In this document: positions 7,290 to 36,713 of the stretch, piece after piece
Layout of the letters: the number at the start of each line of letters is the position of its first letter
Position numbering within the stretch: position 1 is the stretch's first letter
Assembly (NCBI GenBank): GCA_036769285.1
Contig: DAIPLK010000009.1
Location: 1 to 37,262 of the forward strand
Source: Gemmatimonadales bacterium
GTDB lineage: Bacteria > Gemmatimonadota > Gemmatimonadetes > Gemmatimonadales > GWC2-71-9
Direction: 5' to 3'
DNA length: 37,262 bases
Notes under the pieces: model-generated
What the model was told of the DNA's origin: nothing
Database searches by the model: none
What the model saw: only the letters and a program-made list of their open reading frames with translations
Translations under genes and position numbers: made by a program

Positions 7290-7765
7290 AGCTGTCCCAC
7301 CTGGACGAGGCGGGCCGCGCGAGAATGGTGGACGTCGCCGGCAAGCCCGAGACGGAGCGCACCGCGGTGGCGGAAGGCCTGGTCCGGATGTCCCGGAAGG
7401 CGTTCGACCAGGTCGCGGGTCATGCCGTCGCCAAGGGGGACGTGCTCGCGGTGGCCGAGGTGGCGGGAGTGATGGCGGCCAAGCGGACGGGGGAGTTGAT
7501 CCCCCTCTGTCACCCGCTGGGGCTGGATCTGGTCACGGTCGAGGCCCGCCTGGTGCCGGACCTCCCCGGCGTGGGAGTCACGGCGACGGCAAAAGTGACG
7601 GGGCGCACAGGAGTGGAGATGGAGGCGCTCACGGCGGTGAGCGTCGCGTGTCTGACAATTTACGACATGGTCAAGGCGGTTGATCGGGAGATGGTGATCG
7701 AAGGGGTCCAGCTGATCAGCAAGACCGGGGGGACCCGGGGAGACTGGCGCCGCTCCGATTCGTAG
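7286..7765 (+). CDS. moaC: Cyclic pyranopterin monophosphate synthase accessory protein MoaC
   Basis: 159 aa with [21 protein letters not shown] and [24 protein letters not shown], all typical of MoaC. The start overlaps the holB stop (ATGA). Confidence 0.93.
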
Positions 7766-24157: not shown

Positions 24158-24792
24158 CCATGCGCGGAGGCCTCGAGGTCATGGAGCCGCGGCGCAACCG
24201 CCCGCGGGCCGCGACGCAACAGAAGCTCGATCATCTCCTGGCGACGGCGGCCGCGCTGATCGCGGAGAAGGGGTACCGGGCGACATCGTTGCGCGACGTG
24301 AGCCGGGCGATCGGAGTGAGCGTCGCCGGACTCTACCACTATTTCACCAGCAAGGAGGACCTGCTCTACCAGCTCCAGTACCGGACCTTTGCGGCGCTGC
24401 TCCAGGCGCAGGAGGAGCGGGCCAGCGAGCCGGGCACGCCGGAGGACCGCTTCCGGCGGCTGATCGTCGGGCACCTGGAATTCTTCGCCAGCCACCCCAA
24501 CGAGCTCAAGCTGTGCACCTACGAATTAGAGTCCCTCAAGGGGGACGCGTTCGCCACGGTGGAGGCGCTGCGCCGTCGGTACTACCGGCTGGTCACCTCG
24601 GTCGTCGCCGAGCTGATGGAGGGGTGGGGCCCCGATGGCGCGGAATCGAAGCGGAGCCGGCACGCCGCGCTGTTCGTCTTCGGGATGCTGAACTGGATGT
24701 TCATGTGGTATGACCCCACGCGCCACGGGACCCTGGCGGACATCGGCGACGAAATGGTCGAGTTCGCCCTGAACGGTCTCCGGCGCAGGTGA
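24154..24792 (+). CDS. TetR/AcrR-family transcriptional regulator
   Basis: N-terminal HTH KGYRATSLRDVSRAIGVSVAGLYHYFTSKEDLL. ATG 24154 overlaps the upstream stop (ATGA); ATG 24181 is an alternative. Confidence 0.88.
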   Translation: MTMRGGLEVMEPRRNRPRAATQQKLDHLLATAAALIAEKGYRATSLRDVSRAIGVSVAGLYHYFTSKEDLLYQLQYRTFAALLQAQEERASEPGTPEDRFRRLIVGHLEFFASHPNELKLCTYELESLKGDAFATVEALRRRYYRLVTSVVAELMEGWGPDGAESKRSRHAALFVFGMLNWMFMWYDPTRHGTLADIGDEMVEFALNGLRRR

Positions 24793-24808
24793 CGGAGGAC
24801 AGCCCCTG

Positions 24809-26020
24809 ATGCAATTCACGGATGTGTGGATCCCCTACGGTGCCTACTGGGCATCGCCCTTCGCAGCGTGGCAAGGAAGCTTCGCCACCTTGCCGCCGAT
24901 CCCCTTCGCGGCGGACCTGGCGAAGCGGGCCCTGGCGGAGCGCGGGATCGCGCCGGCGCAGATCGATGGGCTGTGCCTCGGTACCACGGTCCCCAGCCAG
25001 CACTCGTTCTACGGCGCTCCATGGTTCGCCGGGCTCGCGGGCCTGTGTCATCTGAGCGGCCCCACGATCAACCAGGCGTGCGCGACCGCCGTCCGCTGCG
25101 TGGTGCAGGGCGCCCAGGAGCTGGCCGCCGGCAGCGCCACGGTCTACCTCGCGGCCACCGCCGACCGGACCAGCAATGGTCCCCACCTCTACTACCCGAA
25201 TCCGGGCGGCGCCGGCGGCACCGGGCAGTCGGAGGATTGGGTGCTGGACAACTTCGGGCGCGACCCCTACGCCGGGAACTCGATGATCCAGACGGCGGAG
25301 AACGTGGCCCGTGAAGCGGGCATCAGCCGGGAGGCGCAGGAGGAGATGACGCTCCTCCGCTATCGCCAATACCAGCGCGCCCTGGAGCACGACGGCGCGT
25401 TTCAGGCGCGCTACCTGGTCCGGCCGGTGGAAATTCGGGACGGGCGGGGACGCAAGGTCCTGAAGACGGTGACCGGCGACGAGGGCATCCATCCGACGAC
25501 CGGCGAGGGTCTGGCGGCGCTCCGGCCGGTGATCGAGGGAGGCAGCGTGACCTTCGGTACCCAGACCCATCCGGCGGACGGGAATGCCGGGTGCGTTCTG
25601 GTGCGCGGCCGCGACCGGGCCCGCGCGCTCGGGAAGGACGGCGGTGTGGGGATCCAGCTGCTCTCCTACGGAGAGGCCCGGGTGAAACCGGGATTCATGC
25701 CGATGGCGGTGGCACCCGCGGCGCGGCTGGCGCTCGAACGCGCCGGCATCACCGCCGGCGACCTCGCCAGTGTCACCACGCACGCTCCGTTTGCCGTCAA
25801 CGATGTTTACCTCGCCCGGGAGCTGCGGCTCGACCCCGAGCGGATGAACCGCTACGGGTGCTCGCTCGTGTGGGGCCATCCGCAGGGGCCCACCGGGCTG
25901 CGCTCGATCATCGAGCTGATCGAGGATCTGGCCCTGCTGGGCGGCGGCTACGGTCTGTTCACCGGCTGCGCCGCCGGGGACAGCGCGGCCGCGGTGGTAC
26001 TCAAGGTCACGGAGAACTGA
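24809..26020 (+). CDS. Thiolase-family acetyl-CoA C-acyltransferase
   Basis: 403 aa with nucleophile context INQACATA, WGHPQGPTG (His) and C-terminal FTGCAAGDSAAAVVLKV. The RBS GGAGGA lies upstream. Confidence 0.85.
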   Translation: MQFTDVWIPYGAYWASPFAAWQGSFATLPPIPFAADLAKRALAERGIAPAQIDGLCLGTTVPSQHSFYGAPWFAGLAGLCHLSGPTINQACATAVRCVVQGAQELAAGSATVYLAATADRTSNGPHLYYPNPGGAGGTGQSEDWVLDNFGRDPYAGNSMIQTAENVAREAGISREAQEEMTLLRYRQYQRALEHDGAFQARYLVRPVEIRDGRGRKVLKTVTGDEGIHPTTGEGLAALRPVIEGGSVTFGTQTHPADGNAGCVLVRGRDRARALGKDGGVGIQLLSYGEARVKPGFMPMAVAPAARLALERAGITAGDLASVTTHAPFAVNDVYLARELRLDPERMNRYGCSLVWGHPQGPTGLRSIIELIEDLALLGGGYGLFTGCAAGDSAAAVVLKVTEN

Positions 26021-26043
26021 ACCGCACCGAAAGGAATCACCGT

Positions 26044-27015
26044 ATGGGAGAGTTCGCCTCCAGGGCCGCCGGCGACTTCGACTTCCGGGACATCCTCTAC
26101 CAGAAGGGGGATATGACGGCCCGGATCACGCTCAACCGGCCGGAGGCCTACAACGCGTACCGGACCGGGACGCTCCGTGAGCTGATCACCGCGTTCGAGG
26201 ACGCGTCGAACGACGACCAGGTCGGCGTGATCGTGTACACCGGCGCGGGAGACAAGGCGTTCTGCACCGGCGGCGACGTCAAGGAGTACGCCGAGCTCTA
26301 CACCAGGCGTCCCCGGGATTACTGGAAGTACATGGGGCTGTTCAGCAGGTACATCGAGAGCATTCTCCACAGCGGCAAGGTCACCATCGCCCGGATCAAC
26401 GGGATGGCGGTCGGCGGGGGCAACGAGTCGCAGCTCGCCTGCGACCTCGCCGTGATGGCGGACGATGCCTACATCGCCCAGGTCGGAACCAGTGTGGGCA
26501 GTGTCGCGGCCGGTGGCGCCACCCAGTGGCTCTCGATTCACGTGGGGGACCGCCGCGCGCGCGAGATGCTGTTCCTCAACCCGCGCATCCGGGCGCAGCA
26601 GGCGCTGGAGTGGGGACTGGTGAACCGGGTGGTGCCGCGGGAGAAGCTCGACGAGGAGGTGCAGAAGCTCGTCGACGGCGTCCTGGACAAGTTCTCGGAG
26701 TGCACTCGCTACACCAAGCAGCAGCTGAACTACTGGAAGGAGTCGGCCTGGTACGCGACCATCGGCCATGCCCGCGATTGGCTCTCGACCCATTTCACGT
26801 CCCTGGAGCCGTACGAGGGGATGCAGGCCTTCGTGGAGAAGCGGAAGGCCGACTACCGGGGTCTCCGGCGGAGGGCGGCGGAGGGAGGGAGCAGCGAGTT
26901 CCTGTGGGGACCGTACACGCAGAGCTGCGGCGCCTGCGGGGCGAAGGGGATTCCCGAAGGCTTCACCTTCTGCGGCGCCTGCGGGGGCGCACTCGGCAAG
27001 CGGCATGGCGCCTGA
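26044..27015 (+). CDS. Crotonase-superfamily ring-cleaving hydrolase candidate (Oah/BamA-like, BadI/MenB-related) with C-terminal zinc-ribbon tail
   Basis: 323 aa with LNRPEAYNAYRT, GAGDKAFCTGGDVKEYAELYTRRPRDYWKYMGLF, INGMAVGGGNE and AQVGTSVGSV. It resembles my recollection of 6-oxocyclohex-1-ene-1-carbonyl-CoA hydrolase more than a generic hydratase. An extra tail ends in CGAC-x11-CGAC. I chose ATG 26044 (after AAAGGA); the longer 25591 ORF overlaps the thiolase. Confidence 0.75.
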   Translation: MGEFASRAAGDFDFRDILYQKGDMTARITLNRPEAYNAYRTGTLRELITAFEDASNDDQVGVIVYTGAGDKAFCTGGDVKEYAELYTRRPRDYWKYMGLFSRYIESILHSGKVTIARINGMAVGGGNESQLACDLAVMADDAYIAQVGTSVGSVAAGGATQWLSIHVGDRRAREMLFLNPRIRAQQALEWGLVNRVVPREKLDEEVQKLVDGVLDKFSECTRYTKQQLNYWKESAWYATIGHARDWLSTHFTSLEPYEGMQAFVEKRKADYRGLRRRAAEGGSSEFLWGPYTQSCGACGAKGIPEGFTFCGACGGALGKRHGA

Positions 27016-27751
27016 CCCGGGGGCACGGGTCGCCCTGGTAACCGGCGCCGGGCGCGGCATCGGCGCGGCGATCGCGCGGGAACTCGCCCGGGACGGATGT
27101 GACGTGGCGCTGGTGGACAAGGCGACGGCGCCGGCGGAAACGGTGGCCGGAGAGATCCGGCGGCTGGGGCGCCGGGCGGTTGTCCTCGACGCCGACGTGA
27201 CCAGCCTCACGGCGGCGGGGGCCTCTGTCGGCGCGGTATTGGCCGAGCTGGGCCGGCTCGACCTGCTGGTCTGCAACGCCGGGATCAGCCGCGACGCCGT
27301 GGTCTGGAAGATGACGGAGGAGGCGTGGGACGAGGTCATCGCGGTCAACCTGAAGGGGTGCTTCAATTATTGTCGCGTGGTGGCCCCGATCTTCCGGGCG
27401 CAGCGTCGCGGCCGGATCGTCACCGTCGCATCGATCAACGCCCTCCGGGGCAAGGCGGGCCAGGCCAACTACACCGCCTCGAAGGCGGGCGTGGTGGCGC
27501 TGACCCGGACCCTGGCGCGGGAGCTGGGACGGTCGGGGGTGACCGTCAACTGCGTCGCGCCGGGAATGGTGCGCACGGCGATGACCGACGCTCTGCCGCC
27601 GCAGATTCTCGACGCCGCCATCGCCGAGTCGGCCCTGGGGCGAATCGGCGAGCCCGAGGACGTGGCCCACGCCGTCGCGTTCCTCTGTTCCGACCGCGCG
27701 CGGCACATCACCGGCGCCGTCCTCCAGGTGGACGGCGGACAGTTCATGTGA
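27005..27751 (+). CDS. Short-chain dehydrogenase/reductase (FabG/BadH-like)
   Basis: 248 aa with TGAGRGIGAAIA, NAGI and the catalytic YTASKAG; C-terminus ITGAVLQVDGG. The start lies 11 nt inside the upstream gene. Confidence 0.9.
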   Translation: MAPDPGARVALVTGAGRGIGAAIARELARDGCDVALVDKATAPAETVAGEIRRLGRRAVVLDADVTSLTAAGASVGAVLAELGRLDLLVCNAGISRDAVVWKMTEEAWDEVIAVNLKGCFNYCRVVAPIFRAQRRGRIVTVASINALRGKAGQANYTASKAGVVALTRTLARELGRSGVTVNCVAPGMVRTAMTDALPPQILDAAIAESALGRIGEPEDVAHAVAFLCSDRARHITGAVLQVDGGQFM

Positions 27752-27767
27752 GAGGACACGGCGCCGC

Positions 27768-28541
27768 ATGACGGACGCGACCGGCACGGTGGGGTACCAG
27801 GTGCGCGACGACGTCGCCTACGTGACGCTCGGCGCGCCGCCCCTCAACCTGCTCACCGCGGCGATGATGGGCGATCTGGCGGCGGCGCTGGAGCGGGCCG
27901 GAGACGACCGGACCCTGAAGGCGATCGCGGTGACGTCGGCGGGGCGGGCGTTTTCGGCCGGCGCCGACGTGGGCGAGCACCGGCCGGAGCAGGCGCCGGC
28001 CATGATCGAGGGATTCAGCCGGTTGTTCCACGCGCTCGGCGCGAGCGAGCTGCCGCTGGTCATGGCGGTCGACGGCGCGGCACTCGGCGCTGGGTTCGAG
28101 CTGGCGCTGATGGCCGACGTGCTGCTCGCCAGCGAGCGGGCCAGCTTCGGCCAGCCCGAGATCCGCCTGGGCTTCTTCGCGCCGGTGGCAGTCGCCTGGC
28201 TCCCGGCCCGCATCGGGATCGCCCGGGCGATCGAGGTCACCAGTACCGGGCGGACCTACACCGCGGGGGAAATGCAGGTCATGGGGCTGGTGTCGCGGGT
28301 GGTAACCCCGGAGGAGCTGCCGGCGGCGCTGGAGGCGGTGCTGACCGACATGCGCCGGGCCAGCCCGGTCGTCATGCGGATGAACGTGCGGCTCGCGCGG
28401 CAGCTGCAGGGCCGTCCGTTCGAGGAGGCGCGGCGGGAGGCGGAGCGGGTGTTCCTGGAGGAGTTGATGGCGACGGAGGACGTGCGCGAAGGCATCGCCG
28501 CGTTCTACCAGAAGCGTCGCCCGGCATGGAAGAATCGCTGA
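27768..28541 (+). CDS. Enoyl-CoA hydratase (Dch/BadK-like candidate)
   Basis: 257-aa crotonase fold with SAGRAFSAGADVGEH, VDGAALGAGFELALMADV and EGIAAFYQKRRP. The context suggests dienoyl-CoA or cyclohexenoyl-CoA hydratase. Confidence 0.85.
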   Translation: MTDATGTVGYQVRDDVAYVTLGAPPLNLLTAAMMGDLAAALERAGDDRTLKAIAVTSAGRAFSAGADVGEHRPEQAPAMIEGFSRLFHALGASELPLVMAVDGAALGAGFELALMADVLLASERASFGQPEIRLGFFAPVAVAWLPARIGIARAIEVTSTGRTYTAGEMQVMGLVSRVVTPEELPAALEAVLTDMRRASPVVMRMNVRLARQLQGRPFEEARREAERVFLEELMATEDVREGIAAFYQKRRPAWKNR

Positions 28542-28551
28542 GGAGGACCGG

Positions 28552-30843
28552 GTGCGGATCCTGATCGTGGGAGCGGGAGCGCTGGGAGGGTTCGTCGGGG
28601 CCACCCTGGCGCGCGCCGGGGAGGACGTGACCCTGCTCGACATCAAGGAATCCCAGGCCCGGTTCCTCAACGACGCCGGGCTGGTGATCACCCGGGCCGG
28701 GCAGGAGGAAGCCTGTATCCCGGTGCACGTGGTCACCTCGGTCGAGGGCCTGGAGCCGTTCGACCTGGTGTTCGTCGCGGTCAAGACCTACGAGACCGAG
28801 GACGCGATGCGCGACGTGATGCCGGTGACGGGGCCGCACACCCGCTTCCTCTCCATGCAGAACGGCATCGGCAGCGCCGAGGTCATGGCGCGGTACGTCG
28901 GCCCCGAGCGGGTGGTCTGCGGCATCACCTACCACAGCATCCAGCATGCGGGCCCGGGCCGGCTGAATTATCGGGTCGGGATCAAACCGTTCCAGATCGC
29001 CCCCTTCGTCGGGGAGATCACCCCCGAGATCGAGGCGATCGGGGAGGTGTTCCGCCGGGCCGGGCTGGAGACGGCCACCGTCCCCAACATCGACGACGCC
29101 GTCTGGGAAAAGGTGCTGCACAACGCGGTGATCAACCCGGTCTCCGCGGTCACCGGACTGACCTGCCGCGAGATCCTGGCGGACCCCGACCTGATCGCCT
29201 TCATGCGCGAGCTGACCCACGAGATCGTCGCCGTGATGCGCGCGCGGGGTGTCGCGATCGTCGACCCGGAAGACCCCTTCCGTCCGCTGCTCAGCTCGCT
29301 CCAGGCGCTGGGCAAGAACCGGCCGTCCATGTGGCAGGATCTCGCCCGCGGCAGGCGGACCGAGATCGACGCGATCAACGGCGCGGTCGTCGCCGAGGCG
29401 GAGCGCCTCGGGCTCCAGGCCCCCCACTGCAGGGCCCTGGTGCGGTTCATCCACTCCCGCGAACGGCAGAAGTTCCTCAACCGCCAGGCGATCGTCCACG
29501 AACTGGGACTCGACGGCGGGGAGGAGCGAGCGGGGGACACCCCAGGGGCGGTGCGGCCGGAACGGCCGGTGCGCGCCACATCGCTGGGAGCGGACGGCGG
29601 CATGCCCCCCGGGGGGCCGCCGCTGGAGACCACCCGCCGACTGAAGGAATTGATGCGCGCCTACTATCGCGACCTCGAGGCCGCCTCGGACGATCCGGGG
29701 CGCCTGGTCGCGGCCTGCTCGGGCTTCTCGCCGGTCGAGATCGTCCGGGCGCTCGACGTGACGCCGTACTTCCCCGAAAATCACGCGGCGCTGATCGGGG
29801 CCAGCCGGCAGGTCGGGCCCTATCTCGCGCGGGCGACCGCCGAAGGATTCTCCCAGTTCGCGAGCTCGGCGATGCGAGCCGACATCGGCGCGCTGCTCGA
29901 GGGCAGCAGCCCCCTCGTGGGGGTGCACGGGATCAAGGGGCCGCCGCGCCCCGATGTCGTGATGTACAGCACCAACACCGGCCACGAGCTGCTCCGCTGG
30001 TTCGAGTTCTACGGCGCCCACTATCGCGTACCGGTGCTCGGCCTCCACCCGCCGCCGGCGCTGGACCAGCTGGAGCAGATGGACATCGACGCGGCGGCGC
30101 ACCAGATGTGGCGACTGGCGTCCGGGCTCGAGCAGGCGACCGGGCGCACCCTGGACGTGCACCGCCTGAGCGCCGTGGTCGGCCACACCGCCCAGGCCGC
30201 CGCGCTCTGGGGCGAGATCCTGGACCTCGCCCGCACGGTGCCCGCGCCCTTCACCTGGTTCGACACGCTGGTGCACGTCGCGCCCATGGTGGTCCTCCGG
30301 GGCACACCCGAGGCCGTAGCCTACTACCGCGAGCTGAAGGACGAGATCGAGGAGCGGGTCGCCCGGGGCATCGCGGCCGTGCCCAACGAGGCGTTCCGCT
30401 TCTACTGGGATGGACCCCCGATCTGGTGCGCGCTCCGGCCGCTCGCCCGGCTGTTCGGCGAATCGGGCATCGCGATCGTGGCGTCCACGTTCTCGACCGT
30501 CTTCGCCCTGTCCGGGTTGGATCCCAACGATCCCATCGAGAGCATGGCCCGGGCCTACACCGGGGTGTTCGGCAACCGGTCCGAGGCCTACAAGACGGCG
30601 TTCCTGGCCCGGAAGTTCGAGCAATACGGGGTGGATGCCGCGGTCTACCACGACTGCCGCACCACTCCCGAGGCGAGCCACGTACGTTACGGGCTGGCCC
30701 ACCGGCTGGAGCGCGCGACCGGCATCCCCGGATTCGTGGTGGAGGCCGACTCGCACGACCTGCGGCTCTTCTCCACGGAGCGTCTGCAAGGACTGATCGC
30801 CGGGTTTCTCGAGCGGCAGACCGCGCCCAGCGAGGTCCGGTAG
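28552..30843 (+). CDS. Fusion protein: ketopantoate-reductase (PanE/ApbA) domain + HGD-D (BcrB/C, HgdA/B-like) core subunit
   Basis: 763 aa. Residues 1-310 or so carry VGAGALGG, SMQNGIG, WEKVLHNAVINP and SMWQDLARGRRTEIDAING, a complete KPR signature. A Gly/Pro/Arg-rich linker follows. Residues from about 360 onward are paralogous to the 31696 gene (YFPENHAALIGASR, WFEFYG, YHDCRTT). The GTG start follows GAGGAGGA. Confidence 0.85.
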   Translation: MRILIVGAGALGGFVGATLARAGEDVTLLDIKESQARFLNDAGLVITRAGQEEACIPVHVVTSVEGLEPFDLVFVAVKTYETEDAMRDVMPVTGPHTRFLSMQNGIGSAEVMARYVGPERVVCGITYHSIQHAGPGRLNYRVGIKPFQIAPFVGEITPEIEAIGEVFRRAGLETATVPNIDDAVWEKVLHNAVINPVSAVTGLTCREILADPDLIAFMRELTHEIVAVMRARGVAIVDPEDPFRPLLSSLQALGKNRPSMWQDLARGRRTEIDAINGAVVAEAERLGLQAPHCRALVRFIHSRERQKFLNRQAIVHELGLDGGEERAGDTPGAVRPERPVRATSLGADGGMPPGGPPLETTRRLKELMRAYYRDLEAASDDPGRLVAACSGFSPVEIVRALDVTPYFPENHAALIGASRQVGPYLARATAEGFSQFASSAMRADIGALLEGSSPLVGVHGIKGPPRPDVVMYSTNTGHELLRWFEFYGAHYRVPVLGLHPPPALDQLEQMDIDAAAHQMWRLASGLEQATGRTLDVHRLSAVVGHTAQAAALWGEILDLARTVPAPFTWFDTLVHVAPMVVLRGTPEAVAYYRELKDEIEERVARGIAAVPNEAFRFYWDGPPIWCALRPLARLFGESGIAIVASTFSTVFALSGLDPNDPIESMARAYTGVFGNRSEAYKTAFLARKFEQYGVDAAVYHDCRTTPEASHVRYGLAHRLERATGIPGFVVEADSHDLRLFSTERLQGLIAGFLERQTAPSEVR

Positions 30844-30874
30844 GGCCCGGCGGCGAGGAAGGAGGCACCTCAGG

Positions 30875-31699
30875 ATGGAACCGGAGACCAGGATCGCGGC
30901 CGGCGTCGATGCCGGAACCGAGTGCGTCAAGGCCGTGGTGGTCGCCGACGGGGGCCGGGTGCTGGGCCGGGCGGTGCACCCGACGCGGGGCCACTTCCAG
31001 GCCTGCGCCTACGAGGTGCTGGCGGCGGCGCTCGACGACGCTCAGCTGCGGGAGCAGGATCTGATCGGACTCGGCGCGACCGGGTTCGCCTCGAGCTGCG
31101 TCCCCGGCGCGACGCTGACGGCGACCGAGACGGCTTGCCACGCGCTCGGGGCCTTCCACCACTGCAACCACGCGATGACCCTGGTGGACATCGGAGGCCG
31201 CGACCCCCATCTCATCACGGTGGACGCTGCCGGTCGGCCGGTGGAAGCCCGCAGTGTGCGGCGTTGCGCGGTGGGGGTCGGTAGCTTCCTGATGTTCGCG
31301 GCGCGCCATCTCGACGTTCCCCCCACGGGGCTGCAGGATCTGGCGGCGACGGCAAAGCAGGCGGCACGGGTGAGCAGCTACTGTTCGGTCTTTTCCAGCA
31401 ACGAGGTCCTCGAGCGGCTCCGCGAGGGGGCAACGCGGGAGGAGATCGCGTTGGGGAGCATGCAGTCCATTGCGGAACGGATCCTCGAGATGGGCGGCCT
31501 GGAGCCCCCGGTGATGGTGTCCGGCGGGGTGGCCGAGTACTTCCCGGGCGTGCTGCACGCCCTGGAGTCGCTCTCGGGAATCCCCGTCCGGCCCGTCCCC
31601 GAGCCGATGCTGGCCGGCGCGCTGGGCGCGGCCTTGAAGGTGCTCCGGGTGCCGGTCGTCCCGCTGAGCGCGGCCGCGACCCGAAAGGCGGCGCCATGA
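30875..31699 (+). CDS. BcrAD/BadFG/HgdC-family ATPase, divergent (BcrD-like partner)
   Basis: 274 aa with GVDAGTECVKAV, DIGGRDPHL (degenerate phosphate loops), and cluster-ligand contexts RRCAVGVGSFL and SSYCSVFSSNE. The RBS GGAAGGAGG lies upstream. Confidence 0.85.
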   Translation: MEPETRIAAGVDAGTECVKAVVVADGGRVLGRAVHPTRGHFQACAYEVLAAALDDAQLREQDLIGLGATGFASSCVPGATLTATETACHALGAFHHCNHAMTLVDIGGRDPHLITVDAAGRPVEARSVRRCAVGVGSFLMFAARHLDVPPTGLQDLAATAKQAARVSSYCSVFSSNEVLERLREGATREEIALGSMQSIAERILEMGGLEPPVMVSGGVAEYFPGVLHALESLSGIPVRPVPEPMLAGALGAALKVLRVPVVPLSAAATRKAAP

Positions 31700-32940
31700 G
31701 CGACATCCGCAGCACCGGTGCGCTCCGCGAGACGATGGGAGCCTACTACCGTTCGCTGGGGGATGCCGCGGAGCGGAAGACGGCTCCGGTCGCCTGGTGC
31801 TCCAGCGTCGGACCGACCGAACTGCTCCGCGCGCTCGGCTTCGCGGTGTTCTTCCCGGAGAACCACGCCGCGATGCTGGGGGCATCGCGCACCGCCCAAC
31901 GCTACATGCCGCTGGCGCATGCGCAGGGCTACTCCCAGGATGTCTGCTCCTATCTCAGCAGCGACATCGGGGCCTACCTCGCCGGCGAAACCCCGCTCTC
32001 GGCGTTCGGTCTCTCCGGCACCCCGCGCGCCGACGTCCTGGTGTTCAACACCAACCAGTGCCGCGACATCCGGGACTGGTTCGAGTGGTACGGGCGGAAG
32101 TGGGGCGTCCCGGTGATCGGCGTGCGCTCCCCGCGCTCGATCGACGACGTGACCGAGAGCGACATCGACGGGGTGGCCCGGCAGATCGAGGGCCTGGTGC
32201 CGCCGCTCGAATCGGTGGCGGGCCGGCGGCTGGACCCGGGCCGTCTGGCGGAGGTAGTCGGCCGGTCTCGACAGTGCTCCGACCTCTGGGAGGCATGCCT
32301 CCTGACCGCGGCGCACCATCCGGCGCCGCTCACCTTCTTCGACGGCACCATCCACATGGGACCGGCCGTCGTGCTGCGGGGTGACGAGGCGGCCAACGCC
32401 TATTACCGGACCCTCCTCGCCGAGCTCCAGGATCGCGCGGCGACCGCCACCGGCGCCGTGCCGGGCGAATCGTACCGCCTGTACTGGGAGGGCATGCCGA
32501 TCTGGGGGCGGCTGCGCGCGCTTTCGGCGGTGTGCATCGAGTTCCGCACCGCGGTCGTGGCCTCGACGTACTGCAACAGCTGGATCTTCTCCGCCCTCGA
32601 CGCGGCCGACCCGATCCGCTCGATGGCGCGCGCCTCGCTCGAGCTGTTCATCACCCGGTCCGAAGCGCCCAAGGAGCGTTACATCGAGGAGATGGTCGGC
32701 CGGTACGGGGTCGACGGCATCGTGTTCCACGACTGCCGGACCTGCTCCAGCAACTCGAACACGCGCTACGGCATGCCGCGGCGCCTGTCGGAACGGCTGG
32801 GCATCCCGACGCTGATCCTCGACGGCGACGTCAACGACCTCCGTTGCTTCAGCGACGAGCAGTCCCGCACCAACCTGGAGGGGTTCATCGAGCAGATCGC
32901 GGACGCCCGCGCGGCGGGCCGGCTGGCGGAGCGGCGGTGA
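31696..32940 (+). CDS. HGD-D family core subunit (BcrB / 2-hydroxyacyl-CoA dehydratase alpha-like)
   Basis: 414 aa with WCSSVGPTELLRALGF, FFPENHAAMLGASR, QDVCSYLSSDIGAY, NTNQCRDIRDWFEWYG and FHDCRTCSSNSNTRYG. There is an ATGA overlap with the upstream ATPase. Confidence 0.85.
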   Translation: MSDIRSTGALRETMGAYYRSLGDAAERKTAPVAWCSSVGPTELLRALGFAVFFPENHAAMLGASRTAQRYMPLAHAQGYSQDVCSYLSSDIGAYLAGETPLSAFGLSGTPRADVLVFNTNQCRDIRDWFEWYGRKWGVPVIGVRSPRSIDDVTESDIDGVARQIEGLVPPLESVAGRRLDPGRLAEVVGRSRQCSDLWEACLLTAAHHPAPLTFFDGTIHMGPAVVLRGDEAANAYYRTLLAELQDRAATATGAVPGESYRLYWEGMPIWGRLRALSAVCIEFRTAVVASTYCNSWIFSALDAADPIRSMARASLELFITRSEAPKERYIEEMVGRYGVDGIVFHDCRTCSSNSNTRYGMPRRLSERLGIPTLILDGDVNDLRCFSDEQSRTNLEGFIEQIADARAAGRLAERR

Positions 32941-33737
32941 GCTACTGGGCCGGAATCGACTGCGGTTCGTGGGCCACCAAGGCGGTGGTCATCGACCAGG
33001 GTGCCCGCCTGCTCGGCAGCGGAGTCGCCCGCTCCGGCGCCGACCTGGCCGCGGCCGCGGAGCGGGCGTACACTCTGGCGTTGGCGCAGGCCGGCCGGGA
33101 CAGGGACGAGATGGCGGCTGTCTGGGCCACGGGGTTCGGAAGGCAATCGGTGGAGTTCGCGGACGGATCGAGAACCGAACTGGACTGTCACGGGCGGGGA
33201 GCCGCGTACTATGTGCGGGAGCCGGCCGTCGTGATCGACATCGGCGGCCAGGACGCCAAGGTGATTCGCCTCGACGCCGACGGCCGGCGTCTGGCTCACC
33301 GGATGAACCGCAAGTGCGCCGCCGGGACGGGGAGCTTTCTGGACGAGATCGCCCTCCGGCTCGGGATCGAGGTCTCCGATCTCGACCATCTCGCGGCGAC
33401 GGCCACCGAAAGCTTCGAGCTGTCCAGCTTCTGCACCGTCTTTGCCGGCACCGAGCTGTTGACTCTCATCCGCGCGGGCAAGCGCCCGGCCGACCTGGCT
33501 CGGGCTGCGTACCTGTCGCTGGTCAAGCGAGTGGCCGCCATGGACGTGTTCCAGGGACGAGTGGTGGCCACCGGGGGCGTCGTGGCCCACCACCCGACGA
33601 TGGTCCGGTTGCTGGGCGAGGAGCTCCGGGCGGAGATCGTGGTGCCGCCGCACCCGCAGGAGATCGGTGCGTTCGGCGCGGCCCTCGCGGCCCGGGAGGG
33701 CGCCGCGTCGGTGGGCCCGGCGATGGAGGGCGGATGA
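32937..33737 (+). CDS. BcrAD/BadFG/HgdC-family ATPase, canonical motifs
   Basis: 266 aa with GIDCGSWATKAV, DIGGQDAKVI, NRKCAAGTGSFLDE and SSFCTVFAGTE. The GTG start overlaps the upstream stop (GTGA). Confidence 0.85.
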   Translation: MSYWAGIDCGSWATKAVVIDQGARLLGSGVARSGADLAAAAERAYTLALAQAGRDRDEMAAVWATGFGRQSVEFADGSRTELDCHGRGAAYYVREPAVVIDIGGQDAKVIRLDADGRRLAHRMNRKCAAGTGSFLDEIALRLGIEVSDLDHLAATATESFELSSFCTVFAGTELLTLIRAGKRPADLARAAYLSLVKRVAAMDVFQGRVVATGGVVAHHPTMVRLLGEELRAEIVVPPHPQEIGAFGAALAAREGAASVGPAMEGG

Positions 33738-35620
33738 TAAGCTTGGCGGAGGCCGCCGTGCGGAACGGCCCGGAGGTCCACTCCACGATCGAGCCGATCG
33801 GCGAGCGCGAATCGGTCGGCGGGCTCCTGGCCCGCCAGGTCGAACACTTCCCCGAGGTCCCGGTCTTCGCGGAGCCCTGCGCCGGCCGGTTCCGGAAAGT
33901 GACGTGGTCCGAGTTCTGCCGCGAGGTCGTTGCGTTCGGCCGGTTCCTCTCGGCGTCGGGGATCGAGCGGGGGGACCGGGTCGCCATGTTCTCCCCCAAC
34001 CGGCGCGAGATGCTGGTCACCGAGTTCGCGACCATGAGCCTCGGTGCGATCTTCGTCCCCATCTTCCCGGGCTACGCCGCGGAGCAGGCCCGCGCCCTGG
34101 TGGCGCAGTGCCGTCCCACGGCGCTCGTGCTCCCCGGTCTGGAGCAGCTCGAGCGGACCGGGGTGCCACCGACCGCCCGCGTGGTGGTGACCTTCGAGCC
34201 GGTCGAGCCGTCGGCGTTCGAAACGGCGCGGGGGGTGACCGGCGCGGACCAGGTGCTGTTCGCCGATGCCCTTGCCCGCTTCGCCGTCGGCGGGGGCGAC
34301 CCCGCCCTGGCGGCATTCCTCGACCAGGCGGCGGCCGTGGATCCGAGCGACCCCGCCCTCATGATGTACACCTCGGGGACCAGCGGCCGGCTCAAGGGCG
34401 TCCTCCTCACCCACGACAACATCCTCTCCCAGCAGCGGGCGCTGTCGGCGATCTGGACCGTGTCGCCCGAGGACCGGTTCCTCTCCTACTTGCCCTGGCA
34501 CCACAGCTTCGGCGGCATCTTCGAGAAGTACACGGCGCTGTACCACGGGGCCACGCTCTACCTCGACGATTCCGCGGGAAAGGACTTCGACCGGCTCATC
34601 CGGAATTGGAAGGAAGTCCGCCCGACGATCTATTTCAGCGTGCCGAAGGTCTATCAGGAGCTGGTGGCGCACGCCCAGGCTCATCCCGAGGACGAGCGGG
34701 AGATCATCCACCCGGAGCTCCGCTTCGTCTTCACCGCGGCGGCGCCACTCCCCGCCAACCTCGCGGCGTTCTTTGCCGAGCGCGGGATCCCGGTGCTCGA
34801 AGGCTGGGGACTGACCGAAACCTCTCCGTGCTGCACCGTCACCGACCCGGCCGAGCCGCGCACCGTGCCGGGGATGGTCGGGTATCCGATTCCCGGAGTG
34901 AGGCTCTACCTCGCCCCGGACGGGGAGATCCTGGTCCAAGGTCCCAACGTCATGCGGGGATACTTCGACGATCCGGAGGCGACCGCCAAGGTGCTTCCCG
35001 GCGACGGGTGGTTCCGCACGGGGGACCTCGGGTCGCTCATCGGCGCGGGGCTGAGGCTCCAGGCGCGGAAGGACCGCATCTTCAAGATGTTCAACGCGGA
35101 AAAGATCATCCCCACCGAGCTGGAGAACCGGCTCGCCGGGATGAATCCGTATATCCGCCATGTGATCGTGGTGGGTCAGGGGCGGAGTCACCTCGCCGCG
35201 CTCATCTACCCCGATTACTTCCGCATCGCCCAGGAGTTCGGTGAGGATCGAGCCACGGCCGATCGGGTGGTGAAGGAGTCCATCCGCGATACCGTGCTCG
35301 CCTTCAACCGCGACCACCCGATCCCCTACGAGCACATCCTCGCGCTGGCGGTGATCACCCGGGAGCTTTCGATCGAGCACAACGAGCTGACTCCGTCCCT
35401 CAAGCTGCGGGTCAGCAACGTCCTCGAGCAGGCGGAGCCCTACCTCGAGGCCGTGTACGAGCCGAGCGCGGATTGCGACTGCACCTTCCTGCGAAAGGTC
35501 ATGCGGATGGACCCGGACACGCGCCAGTGTTTCGCGGGGCTCGAGTGCACGCTGGATCACTGCCACGAATGCGGCAACCTGCTGTTCGGGGACTCGGCCG
35601 ACAGCGTCACGAACCCCTGA
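33734..35620 (+). CDS. AMP-forming acyl-CoA synthetase (FadD/ACSL-like) with Cys-rich C-terminal extension
   Basis: 628 aa with MMYTSGTSGRLKGV, EGWGLTETS, WFRTGDLG and ELTPSLKLR. An extra 51-aa tail follows (SADCDC...QCF...ECT...HCHEC). There is an ATGA overlap with the upstream ATPase. Confidence 0.88.
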   Translation: MISLAEAAVRNGPEVHSTIEPIGERESVGGLLARQVEHFPEVPVFAEPCAGRFRKVTWSEFCREVVAFGRFLSASGIERGDRVAMFSPNRREMLVTEFATMSLGAIFVPIFPGYAAEQARALVAQCRPTALVLPGLEQLERTGVPPTARVVVTFEPVEPSAFETARGVTGADQVLFADALARFAVGGGDPALAAFLDQAAAVDPSDPALMMYTSGTSGRLKGVLLTHDNILSQQRALSAIWTVSPEDRFLSYLPWHHSFGGIFEKYTALYHGATLYLDDSAGKDFDRLIRNWKEVRPTIYFSVPKVYQELVAHAQAHPEDEREIIHPELRFVFTAAAPLPANLAAFFAERGIPVLEGWGLTETSPCCTVTDPAEPRTVPGMVGYPIPGVRLYLAPDGEILVQGPNVMRGYFDDPEATAKVLPGDGWFRTGDLGSLIGAGLRLQARKDRIFKMFNAEKIIPTELENRLAGMNPYIRHVIVVGQGRSHLAALIYPDYFRIAQEFGEDRATADRVVKESIRDTVLAFNRDHPIPYEHILALAVITRELSIEHNELTPSLKLRVSNVLEQAEPYLEAVYEPSADCDCTFLRKVMRMDPDTRQCFAGLECTLDHCHECGNLLFGDSADSVTNP

Positions 35621-35636
35621 GGGGGATGCGCAGACG

Positions 35637-36713
35637 ATGACGCCGGTCAGGGAAACCTGGGACCGTTGGGTGATGACGAGCCCCAACGCGCCATTCGAAC
35701 GGCGCGAGACGCCCCGGCGGGCGCCCGGGCCCGGCGAGGCGGTGGTGGAGGTGGCCGGGTGCGGGGTCTGCCACACGGACCTGTCGTTCCTCTATCAGGG
35801 GGTCAAGACCCGCCAGCCGCCGCCGCTCGTGCTCGGCCACGAGATCAGCGGATTCGTGAGGGAGGTCGGGAACGGCGCCGATTCGGGACTGGTGGGTCGC
35901 GCGGTCGTCGTCCCCGCGGTGCTCCCCTGCGGTGAATGCGACCTCTGCCGCGCCGGGCTCCGGACCATCTGCCGCCGCCAGGTCATGCCGGGGAACGACC
36001 GGGACGGCGGCTTCGCTTCTCACTTGGTGGTTCCCGCCAGGTTCCTCTGTCCCGTCTCGGAGTCGGTCCTCGCCGAACACGACCTGTGGCAGCTGGCGGT
36101 CGTGTCGGACGCGGTGGCGACGCCGTTCCAGGCGGTCAAGCGCTCCGGGCTCGCCGCGGGTGAGCTGGCGGTGTTCGTCGGCGTCGGCGGGATCGGCATC
36201 CACGGCGTGCAGGTTGCCGCAGCGGTCGGGGCCACCGTCATCGGGCTCGACCTGGACGACCAGAAGCTGGAGCAGGCGGCCTCCGCCGGCGCGCATGCGA
36301 CGCTCAACGTGAGGGGCGTCCCGGGGAAGGAGGTCCGGAAGCAGGTGAAGGCCCAGGCCGAGGCGCTCGGCGCACCGGCCCACTGCTGGAAGATCTTCGA
36401 GATGTCTGGTACCGCCGCCGGGCAGGAGACCGCGTTCTCCCTCCTGGGATTCGGGGCGTCACTGGCCGTGGTCGGCTTCACCCAGGACCGGGTCGAGATC
36501 TGCCTTTCCAACCTCATGGCCTTCGATGCCGTGGCACGGGGAAACTGGGGAGCCGATCCGCTGCTGTACCCCGAGCTGCTCGGGTGGGTTGCCGACGGCC
36601 GGATCAAGGTGAAGCCGTTCGTCGAGCGGCACCCGCTCGACCGCATCAACGCGATCTTCGAAGCGGCCCACCAGGGCCGCCTCCTCCGGCGAGTCGTGCT
36701 GGTCCCTTCCTGA
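35637..36713 (+). CDS. Zn-dependent medium-chain alcohol dehydrogenase (Had-like candidate: 6-hydroxycyclohex-1-ene-1-carbonyl-CoA dehydrogenase)
   Basis: 358 aa with AGCGVCHTDLSF, LGHEISG, structural-Zn motif CGECDLCRAGLRTIC and Rossmann motif VFVGVGGIG. The Had assignment comes from context and from recalling that Had is a Zn-ADH family member. An alternative start is at 35673. Confidence 0.85.
   Translation: MTPVRETWDRWVMTSPNAPFERRETPRRAPGPGEAVVEVAGCGVCHTDLSFLYQGVKTRQPPPLVLGHEISGFVREVGNGADSGLVGRAVVVPAVLPCGECDLCRAGLRTICRRQVMPGNDRDGGFASHLVVPARFLCPVSESVLAEHDLWQLAVVSDAVATPFQAVKRSGLAAGELAVFVGVGGIGIHGVQVAAAVGATVIGLDLDDQKLEQAASAGAHATLNVRGVPGKEVRKQVKAQAEALGAPAHCWKIFEMSGTAAGQETAFSLLGFGASLAVVGFTQDRVEICLSNLMAFDAVARGNWGADPLLYPELLGWVADGRIKVKPFVERHPLDRINAIFEAAHQGRLLRRVVLVPS

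Follow-up and report, generated by a model that had tools for sequence, protein, structure and literature searches.

Genes at the fusion locus

A gene at positions 28552-30843 of the window (the whole stretch of Gemmatimonadales DNA that was analysed, 37,262 nt) joins a ketopantoate-reductase-type (KPR) domain to an HGD-D domain in one open reading frame of 763 aa with no interruption. The gene is located on the forward strand, as are all those described below, and begins with a GTG start codon preceded 4 nt upstream by a GAGGAGG Shine-Dalgarno sequence. Pfam places ApbA at residues 3-148 (E 2e-36) and ApbA_C at residues 179-303 (E 2e-34), followed, after a disordered linker of ~55 aa, by HGD-D at residues 392-754 (E 1e-47). 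The KPR domain (ApbA + ApbA_C) covers 28552..29469 (residues 1-306), the Pro/Gly/Ala/Arg-rich linker 29470..29640 (approximately residues 307-363) and the fused HGD-D domain, termed alpha', 29641..30843.

Directly downstream lies ATPase 1 (30875..31699), assigned by Pfam, TIGR00241 (142.7 bits, cutoff 125.4) and alignments to the BcrAD_BadFG / acyl-CoA dehydratase activase family. It is followed by a separate, catalytic-type HGD-D protein termed alpha (31696..32940; Pfam, with alignment to HadB, MbdO and BzdO), by ATPase 2 (32937..33737, 266 aa; Pfam BcrAD_BadFG, E 2e-46) and by an AMP-forming acyl-CoA ligase of 628 aa (33734..35620), which by sequence, Pfam and profile scores is FadD/ACSL-like and not benzoate-ligase-like. 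The stop of alpha overlaps the start of ATPase 2 as GTGA, and the stop of ATPase 2 overlaps the start of the ligase as ATGA; such overlaps suggest a fixed stoichiometry of the module. Both ATPases keep the Cys pair of the bridging [4Fe-4S] cluster, as do the other two ATPases of the window, and they are 35% identical to each other. In a motif survey ATPase 1 carried a divergent DIGGR[DE] motif, while ATPase 2 has the canonical DIGGQD. A second ATPase is found at the equivalent position in loci L001 and L005. The initial annotation had missed the ATPase 2 gene and described an HGD-D/ATPase set. With this gene the module contains two HGD-D proteins and two different BcrAD-type ATPases bearing the Cys pair (genes 28552-33737), a four-subunit composition that resembles a benzoyl-CoA reductase (BCR), and its layout is therefore nearer to BCR than to 'dehydratase + activator'. 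The HadC, BcrC and BzdN models gave no match to either HGD-D protein of the module, and a beta-type subunit is absent.

On its two sides the module has a Dch-like hydratase and Had, and further upstream lie a benzoyl-CoA reductase and a molybdenum enzyme. The former, a Thauera-type class I enzyme (15840..20399), was identified with NCBIfam equivalogs for BcrC (TIGR02263, 490 bits), BcrB (TIGR02260, 677), BcrA (TIGR02259, 576) and BcrD (TIGR02261, 360); a branched-chain aminotransferase and a FadB-like gene are located just upstream of bcrC. The Mo enzyme (20418..24157), placed by profile and PDB matches in the xanthine-dehydrogenase family and 4-hydroxybenzoyl-CoA-reductase-like, consists of an FAD subunit (20418-21296) and a fused [2Fe-2S] and MoCo subunit (21293-24157). 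Its large subunit matched Thauera HcrA with 578 bits in the PDB search, against at most 395 for any other solved enzyme, and scored 939 on the 4-HBCR alpha model, below the cutoff of 994. The extra [4Fe-4S] loop of Thauera HcrB is missing from the FAD subunit, which looks like an ordinary hydroxylase flavoprotein. A block conserved in most loci (24154..27751) follows, with a TetR regulator (24154-24792), a thiolase (24809-26020), an Oah/BadI/MenB-like crotonase, ECH1 (26044-27015), and a FabG-like SDR (27005-27751). The crotonase ECH2 (27768..28541; Pfam and TIGR03189) has dienoyl-CoA hydratase (Dch) as its best match, with a score of 153 that is below the TIGR03189 cutoff of 292.5. At the other end, the Had-type Zn alcohol dehydrogenase (6-hydroxycyclohex-1-ene-1-carbonyl-CoA dehydrogenase family; 35637..36713) scored 448.6 bits on TIGR03201 (cutoff 338.65).

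Distribution and synteny of the fusion

The in-frame fusion reported in the initial annotation is genuine. Of the 75 loci examined in species-representative genomes (GC 50-74%), 73 have both parts in one frame with zero stops; this repeated occurrence in independent loci rules out an assembly or sequencing artefact. The domain architecture, for which a search had been proposed, is present complete in all 120 best database homologues (61-77% identity). Across these homologues the linker measures 50-75 aa (the aligned segment being residues 308-371 of the window protein) and has a mean column conservation of 0.57 versus 0.81 and 0.77 in the two domains. It is modelled as disordered by AlphaFold2, with pLDDT <50 at residues 313-336 and ~90 in both flanking domains. 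Scanning species-representative genomes gave 577 matching stretches related to the fusion, and the hosts of the best 78 of these 577 belong to Gemmatimonadota, Acidobacteriota, Krumholzibacteriota, Myxococcota, Eisenbacteria, Planctomycetota and others. Among uncultured bacteria of soil and sediment the fusion is widespread. Annotation pipelines uniformly name it '2-dehydropantoate 2-reductase', a misnomer. A literature search found no account of a KPR-HGD-D fusion, which agrees with the initial annotation, where none was known.

Gene order around the fusion is largely maintained. ATPase 1 comes directly after it in 65/65 loci, the Dch-like hydratase directly before it in 57/63, Had is present in 48/49, and the Mo enzyme is co-located in 38/44 as well as in the distant locus L006. 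The AMP-forming ligase is in line in 25 of 49 loci, an ADP-forming acyl-CoA synthetase taking its place elsewhere, and alpha is absent within 10 kb of the fusion in 16 of 49. Minimal loci hold KPR::alpha', ATPase 1, the Mo enzyme and lower-pathway genes only. In the loci examined, alpha orthologues always stand beside an ATPase and a CoA-activating enzyme, the latter being the AMP-forming ligase in Gemmatimonadota and an ADP-forming synthetase, together with an SSF transporter, in other phyla. Locus L048 thus has a convergent operon of alpha, ATPase 2, ADP-forming synthetase and SSF transporter, the last two identified by Pfam; L041 has a similar convergent operon in which the last two are ORFs matching in size and position, the Pfam identification coming from L048 only. 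L085 carries alpha, an ATPase and the ADP-forming synthetase together.

A KPR likewise accompanies alpha in every case, in three independent forms: the KPR is fused to the paralogue alpha' (the 577 relatives in species-representative genomes), fused to Cys-bearing alpha itself (P0124, locus L006), or adjacent and unfused (L083, a Desulfohalobiaceae MAG). All three occur in an aromatic context, namely BcrCBAD, the Mo enzyme and Had in the window, a Mo enzyme in L006, and a benzoate-CoA-ligase-family gene in L083 (TIGR02262, 549 bits, cutoff 375).

Residues of the KPR and HGD-D domains

The KPR domain scored 125 bits on PF02558, 119 on PF08546 and 266 on TIGR00745 (cutoff 141), and the fusion model matched KPR structures with TM 0.88-0.91 in Foldseek. 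Its Rossmann motif is GAGALGG. Residues were mapped by BLASTP alignment to E. coli KPR, the sequence of which was checked against PDB 1YJQ: K72, N98, K176, N180, S244 and E256 correspond to K78, N104, K187, N191, S259 and E271 of the fusion. K78, N104, K187, N191, E271 and D273 are kept in 120/120 homologues, and position 259 is either Ser or Thr. The KPR hallmarks recognized in the initial annotation are therefore retained, and from these residues the domain looks catalytically intact. Strand beta2 ends with an acidic residue, suggesting a preference for NADH. Every equivalog-level PanE model of NCBIfam scored below its cutoff (best NF005091, 196 versus 252 bits), which speaks against genuine PanE identity. 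The KPR family yields (R)-hydroxyacids, and Lactococcus lactis PanE is a KPR-family D-2-hydroxyacid dehydrogenase. Structure matches of the domain include alpha-keto-acid/D-mandelate dehydrogenase entries (PDB 3WFI, 8WL1), and the Pseudomonas aeruginosa paralogue KPR2 (PaKPR2, PDB 8IWG) is a 2-oxoacid reductase other than PanE (bioRxiv 10.1101/2024.01.05.573888).

Judged by alignment to HadB, MbdO and BzdO, alpha' is an alpha-type HGD-D without the three cluster-binding Cys. The cluster ligands of BzdO are C95, C128 and C380 (PMC11971306); the equivalent positions in alpha' are S438, G477 and T705. Position 438 is never Cys among the 119 homologues with a residue there, position 477 is Gly in 120/120, and position 705 is Cys in 10/120. 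Since none of the canonical [4Fe-4S] ligands aligns, alpha' cannot be the radical-generating subunit, and the term 'radical-enzyme core subunit' previously given to the fused domain was overstated. The Glu of the PENH motif (E409) is kept in 118/120 homologues, many residues of the active-site region are shared with Cys-bearing relatives, and the alpha' model fits best on HadB in Foldseek (3O3M_A, TM 0.91, rmsd 2.4 Å).

Alpha' and alpha are paralogues with 44% identity over 398 aa. In alpha the three cluster ligands C84, C122 and C350, along with E55, are kept in 45/45 orthologues. Alpha scored 168 bits against HadB in the PDB search, in which HadBC is the sole dehydratase reference, versus 100 for MbdO and 74 for BzdO; with NCBIfam the HadB model gave 188 bits versus 128 for the BCR model. 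The HGD-D proteins of the module stay well below equivalog cutoffs, with 145-188 bits on HadB (cutoff 750), 122 and 128 on TIGR02260 (cutoff 486) and 68 and 72 on TIGR03191 (cutoff 449).

Interpretation and comparison with known systems

The module is a new variant within the known BCR/2-hydroxyacyl-CoA-dehydratase family of oxygen-sensitive radical enzymes. In the explanation we favour, to which we give about an even chance, the fusion supplies alpha', a subunit with neither cluster nor catalytic role, to an unusual member of this family with four subunits; at its N-terminus it bears a tethered, active KPR-family D-2-hydroxyacid dehydrogenase, and the module serves a route from 2-oxoacid to enoyl-CoA. 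The KPR domain with NAD(P)H would reduce a 2-oxoacid to the (R)-2-hydroxyacid, and the acid would become a CoA thioester through the AMP-forming ligase here and the ADP-forming synthetase in other phyla. Alpha would then convert (R)-2-hydroxyacyl-CoA, the isomer taken by all known 2-hydroxyacyl-CoA dehydratases, to 2-enoyl-CoA by ketyl-radical chemistry, its [4Fe-4S] cluster, ligated by three Cys and open at the remaining site, being charged with a low-potential electron by an ATPase1/ATPase2 heterodimer. The enoyl-CoA may then go through a single beta-oxidation cycle (crotonase, dehydrogenase, thiolase). Observed directly are the domains, the conserved residues, the missing Cys ligands of alpha', the set of subunits and the synteny; that the subunits form a complex, which way the reaction runs and what the substrate is are inferred. 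The neighbours are a 4-hydroxybenzoyl-CoA-reductase-like Mo enzyme, BcrCBAD and Had, and aromatic 2-oxoacids are therefore the best-fitting substrates; from this context only, 4-hydroxyphenylpyruvate or phenylpyruvate are likely examples. An aryl 2-oxoacid would pass via aryl-lactyl-CoA and coumaroyl- or cinnamoyl-CoA to 4-hydroxybenzoyl- or benzoyl-CoA.

A three-step logic from 2-oxoacid to enoyl-CoA had been proposed in the initial annotation; the recurrence of alpha with an ATPase, a CoA-activating enzyme and a KPR across loci supports it, yet the fused HGD-D is not itself radical-generating. For a dehydratase route speak the invariant KPR residues, the kept Cys and Glu of alpha, closeness to HadB, the kept cluster Cys of the ATPases, and the linkage of alpha to an ATPase with non-orthologous replacement of the CoA-activating enzyme, as well as to a KPR in three independent forms, all of them in aromatic surroundings. 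The aminotransferase and FadB-like genes near bcrC count on this side too. Against it, two translationally coupled, different ATPases with two HGD-D proteins are a hallmark of stoichiometric, ATP-consuming class I BCR, a beta-type (HadC/BzdN-like) subunit is missing, and the tightest neighbours, the Dch-like hydratase and Had, are ring-pathway enzymes. Neither an aromatic aminotransferase nor an aryl-specific ligase is among those tightest neighbours, the ligase present being FadD/ACSL-like, and there are the loci without nearby alpha. Moreover, only with a CoA ester as KPR substrate would the two fused activities be consecutive steps.

The fusion is found amid benzoyl-CoA and 4-hydroxybenzoyl-CoA degradation clusters of phyla whose anaerobic metabolism of aromatics has been seen in metagenomes only. 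It extends the stepwise Fe-S loss of the BCR/HAD family (double cubane to [4Fe-5S] to [4Fe-4S]) to a cluster-free subunit, within a heteromeric alpha'/alpha and ATPase1/ATPase2 architecture without a beta subunit. Were the aryl-lactate route true, it would be a new CoA-conserving funnel from Tyr/Phe or plant aryl-2-oxo/hydroxy acids to benzoyl-CoA in respiring anaerobes.

The ring-pathway neighbours, the co-location with BcrCBAD and the 4-HBCR-like enzyme, the gene overlaps, and four subunits with two non-identical ATPases, of which ATPase 1 is degenerate in its motif (compare BcrD with BcrA), would also suit a BCR-like, stoichiometrically ATP-coupled reductase of a substituted aroyl-CoA such as 3- or 4-hydroxybenzoyl-CoA or another ring intermediate. 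The KPR would in that case reduce the ring-reduced product as its keto tautomer, or interconvert a keto/hydroxy ring intermediate near Dch and Had, an alternative already raised in the initial annotation. We consider this unlikely, as characterised KPR-family members act on 2-oxo-carboxylates and we know of none acting on a ring ketone. Both alpha and alpha' are nearer to HadB than to any BCR subunit, a canonical BcrCBAD is already in the cluster, and the recurrent unit of alpha, ATPase, CoA ligase or synthetase and transporter points to an imported free acid. The BzdN/BcrC-type double-cubane subunit for two-electron storage (PMC11971306) is lacking as well.

Somewhat less probable still is a new type of ATP-coupled radical enzyme, in which alpha' would hold the CoA-bound substrate for the tethered NAD(H) carbonyl reductase beside the ketyl-radical site of alpha, so that hydride and one-electron chemistry would act in sequence on one thioester. 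Candidate reactions would be 2-oxoacyl-CoA to 2-hydroxyacyl-CoA to enoyl-CoA or, alternatively, ring reduction of hydroxybenzoyl-CoA followed by ketone reduction. If true, this would give the anaerobic degradation of aromatics a new reaction sequence, in soil phyla that are abundant and uncultured.

Another proposal, which we regard as improbable, has the KPR acting on a 2-oxoacyl-CoA in the cluster-free alpha' pocket and passing 2-hydroxyacyl-CoA to alpha, making fused and adjacent activities consecutive. The 2-oxoacyl-CoA would come from a (hetero)aroyl-CoA via Mo hydroxylase and crotonase, for which furoyl-CoA dehydrogenase chemistry, leading from furoyl-CoA to 2-oxoglutaryl-CoA, is a precedent (PMC3223595). 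The hydroxylase-like FAD subunit fits, as do the retained PENH Glu and active-site-region residues of alpha' and the co-occurrence of KPR::HGD-D, ATPase and an XDH-family Mo enzyme in most loci, even in the deeply diverged, isolated island L006. However, the Mo large subunit is far nearer to Thauera HcrA than to other solved enzymes and scores 939 on the 4-HBCR alpha model (cutoff 994). The proposal is speculative and leaves Had, BcrCBAD and the free-acid ligase or transporter without a role, and we know of no KPR-family enzyme using CoA thioesters.

The gene content of the minimal loci could also describe KPR::alpha' and ATPase 1, with or without alpha and ATPase 2, as an ATP-driven electron-activation or reactivation module for the Mo enzyme or BcrCBAD. 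No ferredoxin-type CxxCxxCxxxCP motif occurs across the 37-kb window, no 2-oxoglutarate:ferredoxin oxidoreductase was found among the ORFs scanned, and the Mo FAD subunit is without the Fe-S loop that would be its own ferredoxin-accepting cluster. This is very doubtful, given that a flavin-less, hydride-transferring KPR cannot supply single electrons, that its invariant Lys/Glu/Asn carbonyl-reduction residues would be purposeless, that alpha keeps an open-site catalytic cluster and substrate-site Glu, and that the linkage to CoA-activating enzymes and a transporter would have no reason. Least credible of all is that the fusion is a true ketopantoate reductase serving CoA biosynthesis and regulated through an acyl-CoA-sensing domain, or else an artefact: the pipeline name and the CoA binding of a top structural match, Thermococcus kodakarensis KPR (PDB 5AYV title), stand against the missed PanE equivalogs, the invariably adjacent radical-enzyme ATPase in a catabolic operon setting and the 73 independent in-frame loci.

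The nearest known systems include dehydratases. HadBC, the (R)-2-hydroxyisocaproyl-CoA dehydratase, and its activator HadI (PDB 3O3M, 4EHT) share the HadB fold with alpha and alpha' (TM 0.91), the open-site [4Fe-4S] with its three Cys and PEN Glu with alpha, and an ASKHA-type ATPase with bridging cluster encoded alongside. Clostridial 2-hydroxyacyl-CoA dehydratase pathways (glutamate, lactate, phenyllactate) likewise pair a 2-oxoacid reductase with a CoA-activating step. However, HadC, the beta subunit with [4Fe-5S], is replaced here by an alpha paralogue without cluster ligands, and HadI is one homodimeric activator, dehydratases using such an activator transiently, whereas this module has two different ATPases. 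The clostridial reductase is of the D-isomer-specific 2-hydroxyacid dehydrogenase family and CoA activation is by CoA-transferase; here the reductase is KPR-family and fused to the enzyme, and a ligase or synthetase is used. Hosts of HadBC-type enzymes are fermenting Clostridia, those of the fusion respiring soil and sediment phyla. A precedent for a radical dehydratase in physical association with an enzyme of an adjoining pathway step is the FldABC/FldI system of Clostridium sporogenes, a phenyllactate dehydratase associated with the CoA-transferase FldA; its substrate is an aromatic 2-hydroxyacyl-CoA from aromatic amino acids, the class proposed here. FldA is a separate subunit and not a reductase, unlike the fused KPR.

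Class I benzoyl-CoA reductases (BcrCBAD, BzdNOPQ, MbdONQP; PDB 8S02, 9GAI) have, as here, two HGD-D proteins and two non-identical ATPases that are translationally coupled, and a catalytic alpha-type subunit with a three-Cys [4Fe-4S]; the module is also located inside a benzoyl-CoA pathway cluster. Their electron store, the BzdN/BcrC-type subunit with a six-Cys double-cubane [8Fe-9S] (PMC11971306), has no counterpart in the module, the HGD-D proteins of which are nearer to HadB in sequence and fold, and a KPR domain is in no described BCR. Non-PanE reductases of the KPR family (3WFI, 8WL1, 8IWG) share the two-domain fold and the Lys/Glu/Asn set with the fusion domain, and show that family members make D-2-hydroxyacids from both aromatic and branched 2-oxoacids. 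Whereas they are separate ~310-aa proteins, the KPR of the fusion is tethered via its ~55-aa linker to a subunit of a radical enzyme.

The fusion gene and its distribution

The fusion gene is an uninterrupted ORF on the forward strand (28552-30843) with a product of 763 aa. Its GTG start lies 10 nt past the stop codon of the preceding crotonase gene and is separated by 4 nt from a GAGGAGG Shine-Dalgarno sequence. Three Pfam domains were matched far over threshold, namely ApbA (residues 3-148) and ApbA_C (residues 179-303), which form the ketopantoate reductase (KPR) part, and HGD-D (residues 392-754). With Foldseek, the KPR half superimposed on KPR structures with TM-scores of 0.88-0.91 and the HGD-D half on HadB with 0.91. 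In the AlphaFold2 model (pTM 0.57) both domains have a pLDDT of about 90, while residues 313-336 are disordered. Among 120 homologues the interdomain segment measures 50-75 aa and has a conservation of 0.57, compared with 0.81 and 0.77 for the two domains.

Alignment of the N-terminal part with the E. coli KPR sequence identical to PDB 1YJQ places K72, N98, K176, N180, S244 and E256 of that enzyme at K78, N104, K187, N191, S259 and E271 of the fusion. Within the best 120 homologues K78, N104, K187, N191, E271 and D273 are invariant. The E. coli enzyme is NADPH-specific and carries Arg31 at the end of strand beta2. The final residue of this strand is Glu or Asp in 112 of the 120 homologues, an acidic character that suggests NAD(H) as the likely cofactor of the fused domain.

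The initial annotation described an in-frame fusion, and this is genuine: 73 of 75 independent loci (GC 50-74%) share one frame with no stop between the parts, which rules out a frameshift or lost-stop artefact. The best 120 matches in a 5.8-billion-protein database are full-length fusions with 61-77% identity. A scan of species-representative genomes gave 577 relatives, of which the best 78 loci belong without exception to metagenome-assembled genomes (MAGs), labelled Gemmatimonadota, Acidobacteriota, Krumholzibacteriota, 'Fibrobacteraceae', Myxococcota, Eisenbacteria, Planctomycetota and, once, Desulfohalobiaceae. One locus (L074, 10001-12194), possibly a pseudogene or misassembled, is the sole fusion-type locus with KPR and HGD-D matches in differing frames, the HGD-D match covering only 62%. 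The fusion is thus widespread in uncultured phyla, where it is consistently mis-annotated. As initially supposed, no PanE-HGD-D fusion appears to have been described; literature searches combining KPR with 2-hydroxyacyl-CoA dehydratase, '2-dehydropantoate 2-reductase' with benzoyl-CoA, and Gemmatimonadota with benzoyl-CoA reductase (BCR) yielded no such architecture, and the paper on BCR in Krumholzibacteriota is silent on it. A literature search for the structure of 3-methylbenzoyl-CoA reductase likewise found no paper.

A paralogue of the catalytic subunit without cluster ligands

By both sequence and fold the fused HGD-D domain is alpha-type (HadB, BzdO, MbdO), and it matched no beta/N-type model. 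Three Cys ligate the catalytic [4Fe-4S] cluster of BzdO and HadB (in BzdO these are C95, C128 and C380; PMC11971306). Alignment places S438, G477 and T705 of the fusion at these positions. In the 120 homologues Cys does not occur at the first of them, Gly is invariant at the second, and just 10 sequences have Cys at the third. Because the ligands are missing across the family, the domain is ruled out as a catalytic radical subunit, and its earlier description as a radical-enzyme core subunit goes too far. The separate HGD-D gene alpha (31696-32940, forward strand) aligns with the fused domain over 398 aa at 44% identity and with one gap, and the three Cys and the active-site Glu of alpha are present in 45 of 45 orthologues. 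This makes the fused domain, here called alpha', a paralogue of the catalytic subunit alpha that has no cluster. Alpha' remains under strong constraint, the Glu of its PENH motif being kept in 118 of 120 homologues; conceivably it holds a non-canonical metal site.

Gene context and its conservation

Nineteen closely packed genes, all on the forward strand, fill positions 15840-36713. BcrC, BcrB, BcrA and BcrD scored 490, 677, 576 and 360 bits with their equivalog models; BcrC, BcrB and BcrD exceed the NCBIfam equivalog cutoffs and BcrA falls 2 bits below its own. The electron donor of this Thauera-type BcrCBAD is not encoded nearby, whereas the Thauera gene cluster does encode one. A six-frame scan of the whole window for the motif CxxCxxCxxxC[PAG] gave no hit, and a ferredoxin encoded in the window was accordingly rejected as the donor; nor did a 2-oxoglutarate:ferredoxin oxidoreductase appear in Pfam scans of the remaining window ORFs. 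Next to bcrC on its upstream side, and on the opposite strand, are a branched-chain-type class IV aminotransferase (12637-13542; NF006185, 388 bits against a cutoff of 363) and a FadB-like 3-hydroxyacyl-CoA dehydrogenase/hydratase fusion (13652-15706), which could serve as source of 2-oxoacids and in side-chain beta-oxidation. The left part of the window holds a PAS/PAS/HTH_8 regulator on the reverse strand (3611-5074), with no sigma-54 AAA+ domain detected, and MoaC of molybdenum-cofactor biosynthesis on the forward strand (7286-7765).

A forward-strand xanthine-dehydrogenase-family Mo enzyme (20418-24157) has its [2Fe-2S] and MoCo subunits joined in one ORF. The large subunit scored 939 bits with the 4-hydroxybenzoyl-CoA reductase (4-HBCR) alpha model (cutoff 994), and Thauera HcrA is by far its nearest relative among solved enzymes; tblastn of the Mo subunit against plasmids, run for comparison with furoyl-CoA dehydrogenase, gave only unannotated matches of about 40% identity. 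The FAD subunit (292 aa, 3 Cys) resembles CO-dehydrogenase medium chains and aligns to Thauera HcrB over residues 4-123 only, and therefore lacks the extra [4Fe-4S] loop of HcrB, which we take to accept electrons from ferredoxin. The enzyme is 4-HBCR-like by sequence and may instead run as a hydroxylase. A literature search for furoyl-CoA dehydrogenase linked to 4-HBCR found nothing.

Between the Mo enzyme and the fusion, on the same strand, lie TetR, thiolase, an Oah/BadI/MenB-like crotonase (26044-27015), a FabG-like SDR and a dienoyl-CoA hydratase (Dch)-like crotonase (27768-28541). Because the crotonases score far below cutoffs (Oah/BadI 187 against 464-468; Dch 153 against 292), neither a Dch nor an Oah can be clearly assigned in the window. 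The fusion, ATPase 1 (30875-31699), alpha, ATPase 2 and an ACSL/FadD-like AMP ligase follow, and a forward-strand gene of the 6-hydroxycyclohex-1-ene-1-carbonyl-CoA dehydrogenase family (Had) scored 449 bits against an NCBIfam equivalog cutoff of 339.

The operon of HGD-D and ATPase genes with an AMP-forming ligase at 33734 had been recognized in the initial annotation, which overlooked a further ATPase gene. In relatives an additional BcrAD_BadFG gene separates the HGD-D gene from the ligase, and the window has a complete one of 266 aa on the forward strand (ATPase 2, 32937-33737), concealed in a plain ORF list within the longer ORFs 32532-33737 and 32969-35620. The gene begins within a GTGA that includes the stop codon of alpha, and it ends within an ATGA at 33734 where the ligase begins, so the ligase (33734-35620) has 628 aa instead of 883 aa. 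ATPase 1 and ATPase 2 share 35% identity, and each retains the Cys pair that in HgdC-type proteins bridges a [4Fe-4S] cluster. ATPase 1 orthologues have DIGGR[DE] in place of the canonical DIGGQD of ATPase 2, recalling the asymmetry of BcrD and BcrA in BCR.

Synteny was surveyed at 73 loci, each denominator counting those with enough flanking sequence. ATPase 1 is directly 3' of the fusion in 65/65 and the Dch-like crotonase directly 5' in 57/63. Had occurs within 48 of 49 loci, alpha and ATPase 2 each within 33/49, the AMP ligase within 25/49, the Mo enzyme within 38/44 and any Bcr gene within 22/44. The 16 of 49 loci counted without alpha have none within 10 kb. A divergent second BCR-like set replaces BcrCBAD upstream of the module in a Gemmatimonadales MAG (L026, 3780-7780); it includes two ATPases and matches BcrC and BcrB at 34-37% identity. 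At two non-Gemmatimonadota loci, L041 (14636-20101) and L048 (14536-20174), alpha is not in line and instead heads a convergent operon with ATPase 2 and products of 692 and about 470 aa. Pfam identified these in L048 as an ADP-forming acyl-CoA synthetase, taking the place of the window's AMP-forming ligase, and an SSF Na+/solute symporter; the L041 ORFs match them in size and position. A third locus (L051, 12801-14790) likewise has alpha and ATPase 2, the only two genes mapped there, on the opposite strand, and a 57%-identical alpha orthologue (P0131) lies beside an ATPase and an ADP-forming synthetase. The exchange of the CoA-activating enzyme for an unrelated type, together with a carboxylate-type transporter, points to the CoA ester of an imported free acid as the substrate of alpha.

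KPR-alpha linkage and the proposed role

Clustering at 50% gave only two full-length fusion lineages. The window-type lineage (representative P0121) has no Cys ligands, while in the other (P0124, 34% identity) KPR is joined to a Cys-bearing alpha orthologue, at a locus (L006) that holds only this fusion, one ATPase, an XDH-family Mo enzyme and Mo-cofactor maturation genes. In the Desulfohalobiaceae MAG (L083, 9872-12172) KPR and alpha are unfused but adjacent in the same frame, one stop and 9 nt apart, which could reflect a recent split or fusion, or chance (1 in 3). An ATPase and a ligase follow, and the neighbours include a benzoate-CoA-ligase-family gene (549 bits, cutoff 375), two more ligases, an ACT-pair protein, an M24 peptidase and a 3-hydroxyacyl-CoA dehydrogenase. 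Three arrangements of the KPR-alpha pair thus exist, all of them in an aromatic-acid setting, and the linkage is old and recurrent.

With this linkage and the CoA-activating enzymes, the initially proposed route from 2-oxoacid through 2-hydroxyacyl-CoA to enoyl-CoA fits the data best, refined to include alpha'/alpha and two ATPases. The KPR domain would form an (R)-2-hydroxyacid, a ligase or synthetase would convert it to the CoA ester, the alpha'/alpha and ATPase 1/ATPase 2 complex would dehydrate this by ketyl-radical chemistry, and beta-oxidation would follow; we judge this scheme about evenly poised between right and wrong. KPR-family enzymes yield D-(R) products and, to our knowledge, all dehydratases of this type take (R)-2-hydroxyacyl-CoA, so the stereochemistry fits. 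Paralogues of KPR among known enzymes include alpha-keto-acid and D-mandelate dehydrogenases. Given the linkage with the 4-HBCR-like enzyme, BCR and Had, our best, tentative guess at the substrate from context is aromatic 2-oxoacids (4-hydroxyphenylpyruvate, phenylpyruvate), in which we have less confidence than in the general scheme.

A reductase or ring-intermediate role, in part the alternative first offered, would suit the translationally coupled, BCR-like layout with two ATPases and the near-universal bracketing of the fusion by the Dch-like hydratase and Had, and we consider it unlikely though not negligible. The deep co-occurrence with a Mo enzyme that has no extra [4Fe-4S] loop in its FAD subunit would be consistent with a pathway by way of 2-oxoacyl-CoA, similar to furoyl-CoA degradation, which seems quite improbable. 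It would also accord with electron activation by the module, but a flavin-less KPR is unable to give single electrons, making this more doubtful still. That the fusion is a true PanE or an artefact is scarcely credible.

With ATPase 2 found and alpha' paralogous to alpha, the module comprises two HGD-D subunits and two different ATPases. In this it is like class I benzoyl-CoA reductase, although it has no BcrC/BzdN-type subunit. The combination of a cluster-free alpha-type subunit fused to KPR with a presumably heterodimeric ATPase, in the absence of a beta subunit, is new within the BCR/HAD radical-enzyme family.
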